From the IMG/VR virus record IMGVR_UViG_3300021431_000113, positions 12,167-76,166 of that record: DNA of 64,000 nucleotides, one strand, 5' to 3'. Below the pieces are notes generated by a model. The model did no database searches, was not told the DNA's origin, and saw nothing but the letters and a program-made list of their open reading frames with translations. The first letter of the stretch is position 1; every line of letters begins with the position of its first letter. The position numbers and the translations under genes were made by a program. Source of the stretch: a virus (Duplodnaviria; Caudoviricetes). Shown piece by piece: positions 4,727 to 20,768 of this stretch.

Positions 4727-4835
4727 TTGCACAAATTTCAGGAATGAGATTTGTGCAACTTTTTTATATTTTTTACTTGACAAAATGTGCGGCGAATGGT
4801 ATAATGGAATTTTGGGCTGGCGCGATCGCCAGCCC
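4727..4835 (+). promoter_or_regulatory. Dyad/promoter module copy C
   Basis: TTGCACAA-N16-TTGTGCAA (4727-4758), TTGACA(4777)-N17-TATAAT, hairpin GGGCTGGCG/CGCCAGCCC. Confidence 0.8.
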
Positions 4836-4841
4836 GCCGCC

Positions 4842-5069
4842 AAAAAGAAAAGAAGAACCTTTTTGAGGTTCTTCTTCCGATTGCGCAATCTCTCGTTTCG
4901 GTTTTGTTTTCGTATAACCTGAGGAAGAGTATCCCACTTTGAAGTGCGCCAGTATACCATTTTTTTAGTTTCCTATTGAACAAGAGTGAACACTGGATTT
5001 CTCTAAAGTCAACTGAATTCCGACCTTCAGTATGGGAGTTTTTTTAATGACTTTGCTTTGTCATTTTCT
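4842..5069 (-). ncRNA. Candidate ~220-nt non-coding transcript
   Basis: Promoter 5076-5104 and terminator AGAAGAACC/GGTTCTTCT plus U-run; no convincing ORF between them. Confidence 0.35.
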
Positions 5070-9425: not shown

Positions 9426-9743
9426 CTATTCAGCCTTGCGATACTTTGGAGCATCTTTAGACTTCTCTCCAGGTATCTTCTCGATACCATCCATAGCTCT
9501 TAAAAGAGCGGCTACCTTGTTAGTTGTAAGACCTACACCATCAGCAATCTGACGAGCAGTCTGTGGCTCTGTACCGAGGTATTCAGCAATCTGAGCCTTG
9601 TATCCCTCATTTTCAACCTGAGCCTTAGTTGGCTTACTTGACTTCTTATCCAGAGAAGCTATAATCTTATCAGCAACCTCTCTCATTTCATCTGTACAAC
9701 CCTCAAGTTCCTTAACTGCTACACAAAATTCTCTCTTTGTCAT
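9426..9743 (-). CDS. Winged-helix DNA-binding protein, paralog of 4236..4589
   Basis: Shared SSKPTKAQ.ENEG.KA and TA..I...VG..TNK..ALLRA motifs; three tandem upstream promoters. Confidence 0.8.
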   Translation of the reverse strand: MTKREFCVAVKELEGCTDEMREVADKIIASLDKKSSKPTKAQVENEGYKAQIAEYLGTEPQTARQIADGVGLTTNKVAALLRAMDGIEKIPGEKSKDAPKYRKAE

Positions 9744-9995: not shown

Positions 9996-10145
9996 TTATA
10001 GCAAAAATTCTTTTGTATGTCAAGCACAAATTTTGGGAAGATCTTTGTGCAATTTGCACAACAAAAAATACTTGACAAAATGGCGCTGGATGTGGTATAA
10101 TGGAATTTTGGCGCGCGGACGAGGTGTGCCGGACGTCCGCGCGCC
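9996..10145. promoter_or_regulatory. Dyad/promoter module copy E
   Basis: Leftward promoter, AAGCACAA-N15-TTGTGCAA plus an extra TTGCACAA, rightward TTGACA(10072)-N18-TATAAT and a 12-bp GC hairpin. Confidence 0.8.
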
Positions 10146-10168
10146 ATTCACAAAAATAAGGGGTATTT

Positions 10169-11370: not shown

Positions 11371-11566
11371 ATTATACACCCTAAGCCGGCGGTTGTCAAG
11401 CAAAAAATTGCACAAAATGAAAAAAATTTTTTGTGCAAAGTGCTGAATTTCGGGATGACAGAATTTTAACATAAATAACAGAAATTTGCTATTGACAAAC
11501 CTGACTCATGTGTGGTATAATATTGCGGCGCACTGACGAGGAGTGTGATTGTCAGCGCGCCGCCCA
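11371..11566. promoter_or_regulatory. Dyad/promoter module copy F
   Basis: Leftward -35 11394-11399, 8-bp gap, TTGCACAA-N15-TTGTGCAA (11408-11438), rightward TTGACA(11492)-N18-TATAAT and a GC hairpin. Confidence 0.8.
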
Positions 11567-13099: not shown

Positions 13100-13262
13100 A
13101 ATATACCACATCTTCCTACAGAAGTCAAGTAAAATATTGCACAAAATTATAGGATGAAATTTGTACAGTTTGTACAACAAAAAACACTTGACAAATTTGC
13201 CGACCTGTGATATAATGAAATCGCGGCAGGCTCGCGACAAGGACGCCCGCGAGCCTGCCGCC
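13100..13262. promoter_or_regulatory. Dyad/promoter module copy H
   Basis: Leftward -35 13123-13128, 8-bp gap, TTGCACAA-N16-TTGTACAG (13137-13168), TTGACA(13188)-N17-TATAAT, hairpin GCGGCAGGCTCGCG/CGCGAGCCTGCCGC. Confidence 0.8.
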
Positions 13263-14355: not shown

Positions 14356-14461
14356 TTTGTTTTCCTCTCTTTCCTTTTTCTTGTCTTTATTATAGCATCT
14401 AGAGAGTTAATTGTCAAGCACTTCTTAAAAAATTTTTTTATTTTTTTGTATGTAGTTAGCC

Positions 14462-14626
14462 TTAGTTAACTACATACATTTTATCATTCATGTTATCCTT
14501 TATTGTAACAACTCCGTCAGTAACCTTTGCCATACCTTTAGCTACTTCCATAGCATCATTATAATCGTTATAACTTTCTACCTTAGTTCCCTCTGTTGTT
14601 CTTACTGTTACCATGTATCTTCTCAT
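14462..14626 (-). CDS. 54-aa protein (missed by ORF track)
   Basis: MRRYMVTVRTTEGTKVESYNDYNDAMEVAKGMAKVTDGVVTIKDNMNDKMYVVN; promoter 14677-14705. Confidence 0.7.
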   Translation of the reverse strand: MRRYMVTVRTTEGTKVESYNDYNDAMEVAKGMAKVTDGVVTIKDNMNDKMYVVN

Positions 14627-14820
14627 CCTTGTACACCTTAGCCTTGCCGGTTTCCTTTCCTTTATCTTATGTATACATTATAGCATTTTTTGTCTAATTT
14701 GTCAATAGTTTTTTTATAATAAATTTTTGTTTTTTATATTAAATTTCTGTCTTTTGCAAAAAACAAAACTTTTGCTTTGCATCGCGAAAAACAAAAATTG
14801 TGCAAAAACGCAGATTAGCA

Positions 14821-14970
14821 GTTAGGCATACTTACCCTCAGTTAGACTTGCTTAACCCTGGTTAAACTACCTTACCTACAGCTAAGTATGCCTAACCCAA
14901 GTTAAGCTTCTCTAACTGTAGTTAACTGTGCTTAACTGCTATTAGCAGTGACTAACAGCTATTAGCCAAA
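14821..14970. repeat. 15-unit array in exact 10-bp phase (GTTAR-N6-YTAAC dyads, 20-bp period)
   Basis: Every 10-nt block from 14821 to 14961 has TA at positions 3-4. Flanked by the GCAGATT/AATCTGC inverted repeat. Confidence 0.9.
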
Positions 14971-15319
14971 CCGAACCGAAAAATCTGCAACCCTGTGCAG
15001 AACTAAATCCCGGCGCGCTGTGACCAACACCGCGCCGAGCAGCCATGTGAGTTGTTTCACATCATAAGTAAAACTTTTATCTAAATAAAAGAAAAGTTTT
15101 ATATCAATTAATTTGATTCACAAAACTTTTCTTCTTTTATCAATTTACATTTGTTATTTGTATTATTATTTGATGTGTGTTTGATTGAAACAATCAAAAC
15201 AAATCTATTATTCAATCAATTATGTGTTGCTCATATTTTGCTCCCCGTACAAAAGGCATTGCCCTCGTTCAAATAATCATCGAGGTCCGCAATGTACCTT
15301 TTAAAAATTTCTGGTTGAC

Positions 15320-15453: not shown

Positions 15454-16059
15454 CTAATAATATTTTTTCTCTAAATTTCCATCTATATGTTTTCTATCTT
15501 TCCCAAAATTAGCTTTTTCTAAATCTCCATCTAAAATAGTTCCTTTTATATACTCATGTAAATAAATTACTCTAATATCAAAATCTGTTCCCATAAACAT
15601 ATTCATAATAATATCTTTTACATCTTGCCAAGTAAAACCTGCAGCATCCCGTGGAGTACTAATTCTAGGTAAAGCAATTTTCATAATATTTTGTTCTTCT
15701 GCAATTTCTTTCATGTGCGCGAGTGCTAACTCTACATTGCGGAGAGTCGGTAATTCATATTGCTTGTTTTTAACCACTAAATTAAAAATATGATTATTAT
15801 TACTTAATATACAATAACCTTTTCCATTCCAAGTTAAAATATGATGTTGTTTTATGTCATCGCGGACTGAGTATCTTTTTTGAAAGAACTTACTTAGTCC
15901 CACGTCAAAGCGGCTGCTCGCGCCTATCCAATGCGCAAGAGCATAATCATTTTCATAATCAAATAAATTTCCTGGTGTTTCATTTATTTGACCTCCCGCA
16001 ATCCTATGTTGTGGCTGTTCCTCTTGTTTTAATTGATTTTCTATATATTTACTATACAT
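15454..16059 (-). CDS. Divergent macrodomain protein (TARG1/Poa1p/DarG-like)
   Basis: ALAHWIGA...IFNLVVKNK...PTLRNV...KIALPRI...FTWQDVKDII follows the TARG1-like macrodomain layout. Confidence 0.65.
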   Translation of the reverse strand: MYSKYIENQLKQEEQPQHRIAGGQINETPGNLFDYENDYALAHWIGASSRFDVGLSKFFQKRYSVRDDIKQHHILTWNGKGYCILSNNNHIFNLVVKNKQYELPTLRNVELALAHMKEIAEEQNIMKIALPRISTPRDAAGFTWQDVKDIIMNMFMGTDFDIRVIYLHEYIKGTILDGDLEKANFGKDRKHIDGNLEKKYY

Positions 16060-16089: not shown

Positions 16090-16164
16090 AATTATATCAA
16101 AATTTTTTATTTTTGTCAAAACTGTTTAAAGCAGTTGACAAGATGAAAAATTTTTGGTATAATA
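16090..16164. promoter_or_regulatory. Divergent sigma-A promoter pair
   Basis: Leftward TTGACA-N17-TATAAT (16090-16118) and rightward TTGACA(16136)-N17-TATAAT. Confidence 0.8.
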
Positions 16165-16193
16165 TGTATATAGAGTTCAGAAAGGAGTTCTTA

Positions 16194-17324
16194 ATGAAAG
16201 AAAATAAAAACACAGCGGGCGCGCCTCAACAAGATTATATCAAATTAGATTATACTTTAGAGACACCTGAAGAAAGAAATGAACTTGTTAAGAAGATTAT
16301 TGAAAATACTCCTCCAGAAAAACTCACTAAAAGATATTTAGAAGCGATGGGTAAATACATAGTATCAGCATTTAAGAAAGATATATCAGAACACAGAATT
16401 TTAACAGATAGTAGATGGAATAGTACAATTAAAGTAAGAGAAGTAAGTTTAGAAGGATTATCAGCTTCTTTTGAAAGTAAATATAGTGATGGCGGGAAAA
16501 ACAGTTCAGCAGAAGATTATATCTATAACCTAGTAATTGAAAATGATAAAAATGTAATTCTTACTCCAAAGAGAAAAATTACAGAAGAAGAAATTAAATC
16601 AAACCCAGAATTAAAAAAGATTCATGATGAAATTCTTCGATTAGAAAATCAGGTATTTCCTCTCGCACAGGGAAAACAAAAGTATTCAGTAAAAGAAAAT
16701 ATTAAAACTTTATGGAAAGACATGTATGTCGTGTTTGCGGCGGACAAAAAATTTATCAATTGTGTTAACAGTATTAAAACAGCAAACAAATTAGATATAT
16801 ATGAAAATATAACAATTGATAAAGATGGCGGGTTGCAGGTCGATGCTAACATTAGCCTTCTTGTGCCTAAACACGTAAGCGCGCTCTTATGCAGTTATTC
16901 AAAGCTTAAAGAAAATGCCTATGGTCAATTTACATCAGATATTTATTATACAATGATGGCTCTTGATGAATTAGTTGAAGAAGCTTTAGAAGATTATCCT
17001 CTTTATAAAGATTTACTAATCTATAAGATTGATGGATTACAAAATATAGAAATTCAAAAGAAACTTGAAGAAGATCATGGTATTAAATATTCAGTTGAAT
17101 ATATTTCATCCTTATGGAGAAATAAAATTCCTAAACTTATTGCGGAAACAGCTGAAAAAAGATGGTTAGTTTGGCATTACACTGAAGAAGAGAGCGGGCA
17201 GTGGAAAAAGTGTAGCAGATGTGGTTGTATAAAACTTGCACATCCTAAATTCTTTTCAAAAAATAAAAGCAGCAAAGACGGATATTATAGTATTTGCAAA
17301 TGTTGTAGAAATAAAAAGAAATGA
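16194..17324 (+). CDS. Sigma-factor-like / late transcription regulator with C-terminal Zn finger
   Basis: Region-4-like HTH GLQNIEIQKKLEEDHGIKYSVEYISSLW and C-terminal CSRC...CKCC. First gene of the virion operon. Start re-assigned after RBS GAAAGGAG. Confidence 0.5.
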   Translation: MKENKNTAGAPQQDYIKLDYTLETPEERNELVKKIIENTPPEKLTKRYLEAMGKYIVSAFKKDISEHRILTDSRWNSTIKVREVSLEGLSASFESKYSDGGKNSSAEDYIYNLVIENDKNVILTPKRKITEEEIKSNPELKKIHDEILRLENQVFPLAQGKQKYSVKENIKTLWKDMYVVFAADKKFINCVNSIKTANKLDIYENITIDKDGGLQVDANISLLVPKHVSALLCSYSKLKENAYGQFTSDIYYTMMALDELVEEALEDYPLYKDLLIYKIDGLQNIEIQKKLEEDHGIKYSVEYISSLWRNKIPKLIAETAEKRWLVWHYTEEESGQWKKCSRCGCIKLAHPKFFSKNKSSKDGYYSICKCCRNKKK

Positions 17325-17333
17325 GGTGACTAA

Positions 17334-18587
17334 ATGGCAACAGCCACAAAGAAAAAATGTACTTGTTCACGCTGCAAAAAGACTATGTCTGATATAAAAT
17401 TCTATACACATAAAGATGGTTCAAAAGATGATATGTGTAAAGATTGTTTATGTGCTCATGTAAATAACTTTGAACCTGATACATTCTTATGGATATTAAA
17501 AAGAATGGATGTCCCATATATTCCTTCAGAATGGAATGTATTGCGGGACCGCAAGTATCAGGAGGACCCAAACAAGGGTACTGGCGGACCTGCGGTGATG
17601 GGTAAATATCTTGCTAAGATGAAATTAAAACAGTGGTATGATAAAGAAACTGGAAAACCTTATACTTGGGAAGATTCAGAAAGATTGCAGGCTGAATATA
17701 GTCAAGAACCAGAATTAACAGAAGAACAAAAGGCAGAAGAAGAAGCTCATGAACAAGAGATAAAAGATATGTATGAAAAAGGTGAGATTTCTGAAGCTGA
17801 ATATAAAACTTTAACATCCACAGAATCTCAATTTAAAGATGCGGCGACCCTGTTCCCAGGAGCATCGGACATCAGTAATGCAGATGGAGGGTTCGACTTC
17901 GACTCTCAGTACATGTCTGAAGATGAATTACCAGACCCTGCTGCAGGACTTACAACAGAAGATAAGATTTATCTTGCTATGAAATGGGGTAGGTTATATA
18001 AACCAAACGAGTGGGTTATACTTGAACAGAAATATACAGAGATGATGAACTCATTTGATATTCAAGATGCGGATAGTAGAAATACACTTATTCTCTTGTG
18101 TAAAACTGATTTAAAAATGAATCAGGCTATTGACTGCGGAGATGTTGATGGTTATCAGAAATTATCAAGAGTAAGTGATAATTTAAGAAAGTCTGCAAAA
18201 TTTACCGCAGCACAAAATAAAGATAAGGATAATGAACAAATTGATTGTGTTGGTGTATTAGTTGCAGTATGTGAACGTGAAGGTGGATTTATTCCAAATA
18301 CATTGGTTGATGTAAATGAAGATATGATTGATGTAAGTATAAAAGACACTCAAAAATACTTACATAATCTTGTAACTAAAGACTTAGGTTTTGGTCAGCA
18401 GATTGAGAATTACTTAAAGAAAATACAATTAGAGCATGATAATATTGAAGCTATGGAAAACATGGAAGAAGAAGAATTAACAGATGAAAATATAGCAGAA
18501 TATTACGAAAGAATAGAAGAAGAAAAAATAGAAGATTCTCAAATAACTCAAGAATCAAACGCTTATAATAGAAAGGATGAAGAATAA
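17334..18587 (+). CDS. Zn-finger protein, candidate terminase small subunit
   Basis: N-terminal CSRC...CKDC; stop overlaps the TerL start; positional inference. Confidence 0.45.
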   Translation: MATATKKKCTCSRCKKTMSDIKFYTHKDGSKDDMCKDCLCAHVNNFEPDTFLWILKRMDVPYIPSEWNVLRDRKYQEDPNKGTGGPAVMGKYLAKMKLKQWYDKETGKPYTWEDSERLQAEYSQEPELTEEQKAEEEAHEQEIKDMYEKGEISEAEYKTLTSTESQFKDAATLFPGASDISNADGGFDFDSQYMSEDELPDPAAGLTTEDKIYLAMKWGRLYKPNEWVILEQKYTEMMNSFDIQDADSRNTLILLCKTDLKMNQAIDCGDVDGYQKLSRVSDNLRKSAKFTAAQNKDKDNEQIDCVGVLVAVCEREGGFIPNTLVDVNEDMIDVSIKDTQKYLHNLVTKDLGFGQQIENYLKKIQLEHDNIEAMENMEEEELTDENIAEYYERIEEEKIEDSQITQESNAYNRKDEE

Positions 18588-20332
18588 TGGCTTTAGCTGA
18601 TTTAATGGAACTTTCTATTAATAAGTCTTATCAGAAAATAGGTATTTCTGATGAAAGAGTTAAAGCTTGCCTTCCTGAACTCAGGAGGGCTATTGCTTTT
18701 TATAGAATGTATCCAGATTTATATATTGACTTTTGTAATTCTTGCGCGAGTGAGAAACAGAAAGTGCTTAAATTGTATACTTATCAAAGGATATTCTTGC
18801 GTCAAGCAATGCGTTATCGACACGTGTATGCAGTATTTCCACGTGCCTATTCTAAATCGTTTTTATCTGTCTTGGTTCTTATGTTAAGATGTATCTTTTA
18901 TCCAGGATGCCACTTATTTGTTACTACTGGTGGTAAAGAACAAGCTACTGGAATAGTTAGAGAAAAAGCTGAAGAGCTTTGTAAACTTGTTCCAGGTCTT
19001 GCAAACGAAGTTAATTTTGACAGAGGTAAATCTAAATCTTCAAAAGAAGAATTTACTTTCTTATTTAAGAATGGTAGTATTCTTGATGTAATGGCATCTA
19101 CACAACGTTCAAGAGGACGAAGAGCAACAGGTGGTCTTGTAGAAGAGGTTATTCTTGTTGATGGAACTATACTTAATGAAGTTATTATTCCTACTATGAA
19201 CGTATCTAGATTGCTTCCTGATGGTAGTAGAAATGATGATGAAATTATTAATAAGAGTCAAATATATGTTACTACCGCAGGATGGAAAAATACATTTGCT
19301 TATGAAAAACTTATGATGATATTACTTGAACAGATTACTAAGAGCGAAAGTGCTTGCGTTATGGGTGGTACATGGCGCGTTCCGGTTGCAGAAGGATTGC
19401 TTGCTAAAAACTTCGTTCAACAATTGAAGTTAGATGGAACTTATAACGATAGTTCATTTGGTCGAGAATATGAATCAGAATGGAGTGGGGATGCGGAAAA
19501 TGCTTATTTCTCGTCAGAGATTTTTGACAAATACCGTATCTTAAATCAGCCAGAATATGAATTCAGTGGCAGAAGTAGTAAATCTGCATATTATGTAATT
19601 GGCGTCGACGTTGGTCGTAAGGGGTGTTCAACTGAAGCAGTTGTTATTAAATGTACGCCGCAACCGCAAGGAAATTCATTGAAGTCTATTGTTAATATTT
19701 ATTCATGGGAAGAAGAACACTTTGAACAACAAGCTATTAATTTAAAGAAATTATATTTTAAATATAAAGCAAGAACACTTGCTATTGATGCGAATGGTCT
19801 TGGTATTGGTTTAATTGATTATATGATAAAAGCACAAATTGATCCAAAGACTGGAGAAACATTAGTTCCTTTCGGTGTAGATAATATAGATGAATATCCT
19901 GAATACAAGAAATATCGTACTCCTGAAACAGAGAAAGATGCTATGTATTTAATAAAAGCAAATGCGCCAATTAATACAGAAGCTCACTCTTATGTTCAAA
20001 CACAATTATCAAGTGGTAAAGTTAAATTTTTAATAGATGAAGTAACTGCAAAATTAAAGCTTATGGAAACAAAATTAGGTCAGGGTATGACACCTGAAAA
20101 GAGAGCTGAGTATTTAATGCCATTTACATTAACTACTTCTTTAAGAGAACAGATGCTTAATCTTATTGAAGATAATGAGGGTGTTAATATTATTCTTAAG
20201 CAATCAAGTAAAACCACTCCTAAAGATAAATTCTCTGCTTTTGAATACGGTATGTTGTTTATTAAACGTGATGAAGAAAGACGTAAAAAGAGAAAAAATT
20301 TTAGCGTTTCTGACTTACTTCTTTTTAACTAA
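18587..20332 (+). CDS. terL: Terminase large subunit
   Basis: Variant Walker A PRAYSKS, RGRRATG-GLVEE Walker B region, RNase H-like GVDVGR and KDKFSA nuclease motifs; upstream of portal. Confidence 0.9.
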   Translation: MALADLMELSINKSYQKIGISDERVKACLPELRRAIAFYRMYPDLYIDFCNSCASEKQKVLKLYTYQRIFLRQAMRYRHVYAVFPRAYSKSFLSVLVLMLRCIFYPGCHLFVTTGGKEQATGIVREKAEELCKLVPGLANEVNFDRGKSKSSKEEFTFLFKNGSILDVMASTQRSRGRRATGGLVEEVILVDGTILNEVIIPTMNVSRLLPDGSRNDDEIINKSQIYVTTAGWKNTFAYEKLMMILLEQITKSESACVMGGTWRVPVAEGLLAKNFVQQLKLDGTYNDSSFGREYESEWSGDAENAYFSSEIFDKYRILNQPEYEFSGRSSKSAYYVIGVDVGRKGCSTEAVVIKCTPQPQGNSLKSIVNIYSWEEEHFEQQAINLKKLYFKYKARTLAIDANGLGIGLIDYMIKAQIDPKTGETLVPFGVDNIDEYPEYKKYRTPETEKDAMYLIKANAPINTEAHSYVQTQLSSGKVKFLIDEVTAKLKLMETKLGQGMTPEKRAEYLMPFTLTTSLREQMLNLIEDNEGVNIILKQSSKTTPKDKFSAFEYGMLFIKRDEERRKKRKNFSVSDLLLFN

Positions 20333-20340
20333 AAAATTTT

Positions 20341-20382
20341 GGACATTTTAGATAAAAGTTATTAGATTAATTTATATATACT
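20341..20382 (+). promoter_or_regulatory. Candidate phage-specific promoter (copy 1)
   Basis: GGACA-N5-GATAAA-N20-TATACT, upstream of the endonuclease/portal genes. Confidence 0.5.
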
Positions 20383-20411
20383 ATATGAATCGGGAAAGGA
20401 AAAAATATGTC

Positions 20412-20768
20412 ATGAGAGCTAGTAGAGGAGAAATTACAATAGAAGAAATTTTAACTGAAGCTGGATTAGATTTTCAAGAAGAGTATAGCTTTCCAGATTT
20501 ATTATCTAATACAGGTCGTCCTCTTAGATTTGATTTTGCGGTCTTTGATGACGAAGGAGATATTGATTTCTTAATTGAGTATCAAGGAATTCAGCATTAT
20601 AAGCCAAAAGAAAAATTTGGTGGTATGCAAGGGTTAAGAAAGCAACAATTTAATGATATGAAGAAACGTGAGTATTGTCGCAAGCATAAAATTAAATTAA
20701 TAGCTATTCCTTATACAGATGAATTCTTACTTAGTTATGATTATATTATGAAGAAAGCTGGTTATTAA
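20412..20768 (+). CDS. PD-(D/E)xK-type (DUF559/DUF2726-like) endonuclease
   Basis: LRFDFAV...LIEYQGIQHY...DMKKREYC pattern. Confidence 0.7.
   Translation: MRASRGEITIEEILTEAGLDFQEEYSFPDLLSNTGRPLRFDFAVFDDEGDIDFLIEYQGIQHYKPKEKFGGMQGLRKQQFNDMKKREYCRKHKIKLIAIPYTDEFLLSYDYIMKKAGY

Follow-up and report, generated by a model that had tools for sequence, protein, structure and literature searches.

The array at the early-region boundary

The DNA analyzed here, hereafter the window, is a 64,000-nt stretch of the IMG/VR record IMGVR_UViG_3300021431_000113 (bases 12167–76166 of this 76-kb contig, the completeness of which is estimated at 57%). It comes from a large, siphovirus-type phage with a GC content of about 32%, and the coordinates given below are those of the window unless another record is named. 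The small early genes of this phage are read leftward and stop near 16.1 kb, where a long rightward block starts. The block encodes a "sigma factor"-like protein whose tail is HNH-like, a protein of 417 aa, the large terminase, a homing endonuclease of the HNH type and the portal protein, and it also contains open reading frames (ORFs) of 2854 and 2271 aa. Close to this switch of the transcribed strand, and to a turn of the GC skew, there is an 830-bp gap free of ORFs, between the leftward ORFs 14462–14626 and 15454–16059. The gap contains the element which is the subject of this report, an array of eight 20-bp units (14821–14976, with no strand assigned) that we describe as a candidate row of one-dimer operators of the DtxR/IdeR type. 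Reading leftward, the locus consists of a gene for a 201-aa protein, a GC-rich hairpin, a terminator-like hairpin, the array, an AT-rich repeat region and a consensus promoter.

The array was delimited by its block pattern, its periodicity and a double-dyad scan. The first-pass annotation of this DNA had listed 15 ten-base blocks, each with TA at the same place, and all of them are found at 14821–14970, with TA at block positions 3–4. Counted from 14823, TA recurs 15 times in succession at an exact 10-bp period; the runner-up elsewhere in the 64-kb window is a run of 5, and the longest such run in 200 Markov-1 simulated windows is 6. As regards the TA periodicity, the run length is therefore unmatched, while the Fourier power at period 10 (4.8, against a 99.9th percentile of 5.3) is high yet below the maximum of the window. 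The true unit is 20 bp long and comprises a 16-bp dyad, GTTAR-N6-YTAAC, plus a 4-bp linker. The eight units start at 14821, 14841 and so on up to 14961, the last one (14961–14976) being weaker. Dyads of this form with a 20-bp period had been proposed, and they are borne out by the double-dyad scan (GTTAR-N6-YTAAC-N4 twice, with up to 2 mismatches), which gave 6 matches in the window, all within the array, and 0 in 100 shuffles. A dyad repeated every 20 bp describes the periodic signal better than TA steps do. The core letters GTTAG/CTAAC are matched at 7–9 of 10 positions in each unit of the window. The 14-bp inverted repeat reported within the array (14821–14834/14883–14896) is perfect. The reported flanking repeat GCAGATT/AATCTGC (14810–14816/14982–14988) is also real, though its right copy is part of the minus-strand terminator-like hairpin at 14984–15001.

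This latter hairpin was found on the minus strand in a consensus scan (14974–15001; a stem-loop from 15001 to 14984, then a T run at 14983–14974), and it would probably end the leftward transcript of the 201-aa gene just ahead of the array. The GC-rich hairpin that adjoins the array (15011–15037, no strand assigned) has a 7-bp stem, CGGCGCG/CGCGCCG, and a 13-nt loop. CGG...CCG-shaped hairpins with other stem sequences border arrays in many relatives of the phage, and the early region of the window has such hairpins elsewhere too, behind rightward −10 boxes. As similar hairpins occur away from the array, the association is loose and the hairpin was not retained as an integral part of the array element.

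On the other side of the array, the interval up to the promoter is occupied by the AT-rich repeat region (14710–14808, no strand assigned). It contains a 20-bp direct repeat in 2.3 copies at 14710–14755 as well as the copies GCAAAAAACAAAAC and GCGAAAAACAAAAA, 28 bp apart, and may act as a UP element or as an unwinding region. The consensus scan also gave a perfect sigma-70-type promoter on the minus strand, TTGACA-17-TATAAT with a TG (14677–14705), which leads into the leftward 54-aa ORF (14462–14626). The array lies about 115–270 bp upstream of the −35 box of this promoter. A leftward consensus-promoter module with an AT-rich upstream part, as found at 14640–14730, recurs before many early genes, at no fewer than five other sites (G000 positions 20375, 22569, 23514, 24581, 25763 and 26035). 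At the 3′ end of the 54-aa ORF, a plus-strand hairpin with a 14-bp stem and a T run (14447–14478) holds a lone GTTAG-N6-TTAAC dyad (14455–14470).

To the right of the array, the 201-aa ORF (minus strand, 15454–16059) was used as a synteny anchor. Pfam and PHROG searches with this ORF gave no match; by eye, it resembles a macro (ADP-ribose-binding) domain. A link of this ORF to protein family c3 was considered and is probably spurious. The conserved rightward operon that follows (plus strand, 16113–20332) encodes the "sigma factor"-like protein with its EndoVII/HNH-like C-terminus (16113–17324), the 417-aa protein (17334–18587) and the large terminase (18587–20332). Two perfect TTGACA-17-TATAAT promoters stand back to back at 16091–16163 (minus strand, 16119–16091; plus strand, 16135–16163) and mark the divergence of early and structural genes. 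The listed TTG start of the 403-aa ORF (16113) overlaps them, and the true start is therefore probably located further downstream. An HNH homing-endonuclease-like ORF (phrog_9084; 20385–20768) is inserted between the large terminase and portal genes. Within the early region, at 4790–4835, 10085–10146, 11500–11563 and 13200–13261, a rightward TATAAT box has a very GC-rich hairpin no more than about 8 nt behind it, the sequence of which differs from site to site. These modules point against the leftward direction of the genes, and no ORF follows them; the same module precedes arrays in relatives.

Rfam and tRNA scans gave nothing at the site of the array, and a blastn search of the locus against 50,697 phage records yielded a single short, unrelated match. 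The closest named relative of the phage is the gut phage Phass-1 (portal identity 38%; genetic code 15). Its genome was scanned and is devoid of any such array, and repeats go unmentioned in the Phass-1 paper.

Arrays in other viral contigs

An IMG/VR pattern scan followed by a variable-spacer filter gave about 19 independent contigs with arrays of this family. Arrays have 5–35 units, and a genome carries one to three of them, all in one early-region locus. The matrix built from 247 units reads aGTTAG-ty..ra-CTAACt. The phasing noted in the window is conserved across the viral contigs: phase and half-sites are kept while the spacers drift. A near-identical phage (L009, 201-aa ORF 100% identical) differs within the array by 3 substitutions, one of which restores a half-site G. 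A more distant relative (L010, 201-aa ORF 63% identical) has 12–13 units at the syntenic place and a second array of about 10 units 1.5 kb off; its spacers are unrelated to those of the window, while the GTTA-N8-TAAC register is identical. In three near-complete genomes of 140–150 kb, every match falls within one region of 1.5–3 kb. The largest number of units, about 59, was found in one 22.7-kb phage contig (loci L024 plus L068).

The setting of the arrays varies. In the large-phage relatives, arrays lie 0.5–5 kb upstream of the operon for the HNH-like protein, the 417-aa protein and the terminase. Four arrays, namely those of L019, L068 and L090 and the second one of L010, have a perfect TTGACA-17-TATAAT promoter ahead of them, with a GC hairpin in between, and in L010 and L090 a gene lies downstream of the array. 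Both the size of the array and its place relative to promoters vary freely among relatives. Two small phages (L082 and L083) carry arrays of 5–6 units with an adjoining GC hairpin, and encode PF03175 (DNA_pol_B_2, a protein-primed type-B polymerase) and PF05894 (Podovirus_Gp16, the phi29 encapsidation ATPase). Their arrays (L082, 11640–11790; L083, 11900–12010) are located upstream of the operon that contains the polymerase. A membrane protein, an exonuclease-like protein (from motifs seen by eye, with no Pfam match) and small unknown proteins recur as neighbours of arrays, and no single phage gene is common to all array-bearing loci, even at a relaxed BLAST threshold.

The longest array stands in L090 (3950–4930 of IMGVR_UViG_3300037400_003374), where a non-coding region of about 900 bp holds some 35 GTTAG-N6-CTAAC units and several clusters of the repeat TTTGACTT. 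A GC hairpin of this region has a dyad in its loop; a consensus promoter reads in, and a gene follows. Four perfect DnaA boxes (TTATCCACA) with a 12-bp period (4865–4909) abut this array. Such boxes were found in only 1 of the approximately 19 loci, L090, and are not a general feature. Gram-positive LexA boxes of the Cheo type, such as GAACATATGTTC, stand beside the GC hairpin or the array in L032, L117, L089, L104 and L167, which suggests an SOS input at the same locus. Relatives of the phage were binned with an Oscillospiraceae metagenome-assembled genome and, taken together with the LexA boxes, this suggests a host in the Bacillota.

The motif in bacterial iron-gene promoters

We searched 185,579 bacterial and archaeal genomes (596 Gb) for the phage-derived two-dyad pattern, in which 20 bases are specified. 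At least 120 bacterial loci matched, where we estimate that about 0.5 would be expected by chance; this test used the consensus motif and not the degenerate units of the window. The matches listed come from the Bacillota, Melainabacteria, Actinomycetota, Spirochaetes, Proteobacteria and other phyla. Nearly all of them have exactly two dyads (rarely 3–5) and lie in promoter regions, commonly on or beside a TTGACA box or a divergent gene start. Among the 120 matches listed, FeoA/FeoB are encoded downstream at 41 loci, DtxR-family proteins (PF01325 plus PF02742) at 19 and iron-type binding proteins at 11, and 62 of the 120 have at least one of the three. The bacterial promoters that carry the motif include those of feoAB, of iron ABC transporters and of DtxR-family repressor genes themselves. 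Half-site, spacer length and linker length are identical in the phage arrays and in the bacterial two-dyad operators. Five operator-carrying bacterial genomes have 2–15 perfect dyads each. The operator is carried, among others, by the isolate Faecalitalea cylindroides ATCC 27803 (locus L132). Among the matches listed (loci L119–L238), the operator also stands before genes for enolase (4 loci), pyruvate formate-lyase (2), dihydroxy-acid dehydratase (2) and FTR1 permease (2), which hints at a wider iron-sparing regulon of this DtxR-type repressor.

The half-sites also agree with what has been published on IdeR. In Saccharopolyspora erythraea, each IdeR monomer reads one CCTAA pentamer, and a single dimer binds TTAGGNNNNCCTAA, a 14-bp one-dimer site; the essential letters are T at pentamer position 3 and C at position 1 or 2 (PMC8464063). 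This site, TTAGG-N4-CCTAA, has the same geometry as the TTAG-N6-CTAA of the array, and the array shares with it the x-C-T-A-A pentamer, the inverted orientation and the spacing. All 8 units of the window hold the equivalent register. Of the 494 phage half-sites, 401 (81%) obey the rule on essential letters, as do 13 of the 16 half-sites of the window. Phage half-sites with a letter other than C at position 2 are enriched in C at position 1 (odds ratio 2.8, p = 5e-4), and in the window a C stands before each of the four half-sites with the sequence TTAAC or TTACC. Genes for short DtxR-like proteins stand next to the Firmicute operators, and in these proteins the Ser-x-Pro start of the recognition helix is retained, as judged by eye against DtxR.

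The arrangement of the sites differs from that of known operators. The classical iron box of DtxR/IdeR is one 19-bp palindrome bound by two dimers that overlap by 5 bp on opposite faces, whereas the array consists of non-overlapping dimer sites, set 20 bp apart on one face and repeated 8–35 times on phage DNA. The bacterial GTTAG-N6-CTAAC-N4-GTTAG-N6-CTAAC operators overlap the promoter, whereas the phage arrays extend up to 35 units and have no fixed relation to promoters. The MarR-family regulator MepR recognizes a GTTAG-N4-CTAAC inverted repeat (PMC3936728). An operator of the MepR type was considered and discarded, as the array has N6 within the dyad and its N4 junction between dyads is everted. 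Taking all these data into account, the array by itself is probably a phased row of DtxR-family operators.

The predicted binding protein and possible purpose of the array

Over the 247 units, Watson–Crick pairing of symmetric positions is no commoner than independence predicts (for the pair 1–16, 151 observed against 160.6 expected). Conservation is seen in the stem letters but not in the "loop" letters, and the linker is itself symmetric (T..A). As the symmetric positions do not covary, a pairing constraint is excluded and RNA or cruciform stems were ruled out; judging from its sequence pattern, the array is a site in double-stranded DNA. A dimeric protein is the reader so indicated, with two half-sites of 5–7 bp and dimers every 20 bp. 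That the array acts as RNA, namely as a transcript of tandem 5–6-bp hairpins that would soak up an RNA-binding protein, could be argued from the strong promoters that read into arrays in several relatives and from the GUUAG/CUAAC stem that each unit is able to form. Nevertheless, given the lack of compensatory covariation, the symmetry of units and linker on both strands, the absence of an Rfam match and the terminator-like hairpin ahead of the array in the window, we hold this to be extremely improbable. The first-pass annotation had proposed the array as a candidate DNA-wrapping or loading platform of the Widom 601 type, built on TA steps, for the small subunit of terminase (TerS), gyrase or a histone-like protein. 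Because the conserved letters extend well past the TA step, to a(G)TTAG/CTAA(C)t in alternating orientation with 5–7 letters per half-site, recognition would be sequence-specific and not a matter of TA-step bendability. What stands of that idea is that proteins would dock on an array in helical phase where early and late genes meet; the particular proteins named are unsupported. Wrapping as a TA-step mechanism fails as well, but with a spacing of 20 bp on DNA of about 10.5 bp per turn a filament of dimers would drift by some 34 degrees per unit, and some writhing or wrapping by such a filament is possible. Close to the same annotation is the reading as an iteron replication origin or as a pac/cosB platform for the small terminase. 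The AT-rich repeat region adjoining the array, its location 0.5–5 kb upstream of the terminase operon in large phages, the DnaA boxes that abut the array in L090, and the nearby strand switch and GC-skew turn would all agree with it. Against it, the same arrays occur in phi29-like phages, which are replicated from their ends by protein priming and packaged through Gp16. Phages of the phi29 type are not known to possess a TerS, a pac or cos site or an internal origin. Moreover, genomes carry one to three arrays, the half-sites are inverted, whereas a ring-shaped TerS would call for direct repeats, there is no initiator gene next to the array, DnaA boxes are confined to L090, and the motif is that of a bacterial promoter operator. 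The annotation had placed the array near a probable genome end, for which we find no support: it lies about 27 kb inside its own contig and at varied positions in near-complete relatives. The contigs are classed as linear, with end repeats absent. A small-terminase site is not supported, and we consider an origin or packaging function very unlikely.

The earlier mechanism is thus replaced. The array is real and conserved, and its best-supported identity, which we favor with some reserve on the basis of sequence comparison, is that of phased operators for a DtxR/IdeR-type repressor of the host. Five phage records, including two that are 95–97% complete, encode no DtxR metal-binding domain (PF02742), and the PF01325 matches of the phages are marginal, generic and far from the arrays; the host's own repressor would for this reason be the simplest ligand. 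The host would be expected to have a DtxR-family repressor of only about 120–140 aa as well as two-dyad operators at feoAB. Directly observed are the array, its conservation, the absent covariation, a motif identical to that of bacterial iron-gene operators and the lack of a DtxR gene in the phage records examined; from these we infer both that the array is bound by the repressor of the host and that it serves for titration. That both hold together, the array being a decoy or sink for the repressor, is a tentative proposal to which we give somewhat less than an even chance. The eight units would be head-to-tail, one-dimer sites for the metal-dependent iron repressor, and the exact 20-bp period would set successive dimers on nearly one helix face, as in the two-dyad operators of feoAB and other iron-uptake promoters. 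In an iron-replete cell, metal-loaded repressor would coat the array. As phage DNA replicates, arrays would outnumber the handful of operators of the host and draw the repressor away, and host iron uptake would thereby be derepressed to the benefit of the phage. Considering the approximately 59 units in one phage contig and the 2–15 perfect dyads of a bacterial genome, one phage genome can equal or exceed the whole regulon of the host even before replication. A classical operator is not what is expected from units that are many and variable in number (8 to about 59), that form up to three arrays per genome and that have no fixed place relative to promoters: in the window, the array follows a terminator-like hairpin and precedes the promoter at a distance upstream, and four arrays of relatives (L019, L068, L090 and the second one of L010) lie downstream of promoter and GC hairpin.

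Two other explanations keep a protein on the dyads. In one of them, the main alternative to a sink, the ligand is again the iron repressor of the host and the purpose is sensing, the array being an iron-dependent roadblock or silencer of early or antisense transcription across the locus. The succession of perfect promoter, GC hairpin and array in the four loci just named, two of them with a gene beyond the array, fits such a switch, as do the LexA-type boxes and the L090 DnaA boxes beside arrays, which make the locus read as a hub for inputs on the state of the host; the Spo0A boxes of phi29 provide a precedent (PMC2731898). Such a switch would also be comparable to the control of tox by DtxR on corynephage beta. 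Yet one or two operators suffice in bacterial promoters, so that 8–35 units in up to three arrays appear excessive, the position relative to promoters is not conserved, and in the window the array lies upstream of the promoter (−115 to −270) and after the terminator-like hairpin, and hence outside the path of the transcript. We regard the switch as rather unlikely, if less so than the other explanation, by which a phage-encoded winged-helix protein binds the dyads and forms a phased nucleoprotein filament (a regulator, a silencer, or a centromere-like or architectural element), and the likeness to iron boxes is mimicry or coincidence. Small proteins resembling winged helix-turn-helix (wHTH) proteins are indeed repeatedly encoded close to arrays (8 loci have family c0, of which the window has a homologue at 9426–9743), proteins of about 120 aa in G001–G003 score 14–27.6 bits on Fe_dep_repress, and the architecture recalls the parC and sopC centromeres. 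However, these matches are generic, as HTH_27, TrmB and MarR score equally; by eye, the proteins lack the Ser-x-Pro recognition motif kept by Firmicute DtxR-like proteins; and the wHTH genes are distant from the arrays. No partition NTPase gene is found nearby, no phage gene is common to all array loci, those of phi29-like phages included, and a chance identity with a 20-letter bacterial operator, linker length included, is improbable. A partition centromere of the parC/sopC type was itself rejected, as there is no adjacent NTPase/adaptor operon and the neighbours are a membrane protein, an exonuclease-like protein and small unknowns. A phage protein as the actual ligand is, in our opinion, unlikely.

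Several observations weigh against the repressor sink or its application to the window. In several relatives a consensus promoter fires directly into the array, which fits a roadblock or switch equally well. The phages have genes for several generic winged-helix proteins; the score of one of them (26.5–27.6 bits) is slightly over the cut-off of PF01325, the DtxR N-terminal domain, and a phage protein could be the actual ligand. The one bacterial bin examined, the Oscillospiraceae bin G011, which holds a related phage contig, has no host operators outside that contig and no DtxR domain; at only 1.1 Mb, it is uninformative. Phage half-sites favor ACTAA, whereas the bacterial operators show no preference at that position. 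Finally, no unit of the window is a perfect GTTAG-N6-CTAAC (mean match, 8.25 of 10 core letters); this array is the most degenerate of its family and could be a weak or decaying copy.

The proposed repressor sink can be compared with systems already described. Plasmid centromeres, such as parC of R1 or pSK41 with ParR and sopC of F, consist of phased tandem sites. The array resembles them in that many short protein sites stand in exact helical phase, so that a superhelical filament is possible; unlike them, it has no partition NTPase or adaptor gene nearby and its motif belongs to a metalloregulator regulon. Titration by multicopy operator DNA is an established principle: in the Fur titration assay, such DNA draws the iron repressor away from its targets on the chromosome. 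Decoy DNA is reported to titrate transcription factors successfully in bacteria (PMC7826281), and binding to adjacent palindromes is cooperative in the case of SloR, a member of the DtxR family (PMC11566000). The array would be like the Fur assay and synthetic decoy arrays in that many operator copies pull a repressor from chromosomal targets, with the difference that those are laboratory constructs and the array is natural phage DNA (PMC7826281, PMC3322331). Our literature searches returned no published phage arrays of DtxR boxes and no description of a natural phage-borne metalloregulator decoy. A DtxR operator controls tox in corynephage beta. Spo0A boxes are present in the phi29 and Nf genomes (PMC2731898). 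Like the array, such phage-borne sites for host regulators tie the phage programme to host physiology; they are single or few scattered sites on promoters or origins with a function that has been shown, whereas the array is a long phased tandem with a predicted one.

Implications for phage–host interaction

Host-regulator sites on phage DNA are known as single switches, as in the case of tox/DtxR and of phi29/Spo0A, and a long, phase-locked array of metalloregulator operators would be a different device. It has been kept long enough for the spacers to randomise, and is found in unrelated gut and rumen phages. It is conceivable, although on balance we doubt it, that at least two unrelated phage lineages carry such "DNA sponges" of up to about 60 operators for the iron repressor of the host, which would strip the repressor as phage genomes multiply and switch on iron import. 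The effector of such a sponge would be non-coding DNA and not a protein, and the neighbouring DnaA-box, LexA-box and other repeat clusters of the relatives could be further modules of the same sort. If the assignment to iron-repressor operators is true, either the phage reads the iron status of the cell, or the copy number of its DNA alone rewires the iron regulon of the host. Non-coding decoy DNA would then join the tools by which phages take over their hosts, and the array would provide a sequence signature for predicting, among users of this DtxR-type operator, the hosts of uncultured gut phages.

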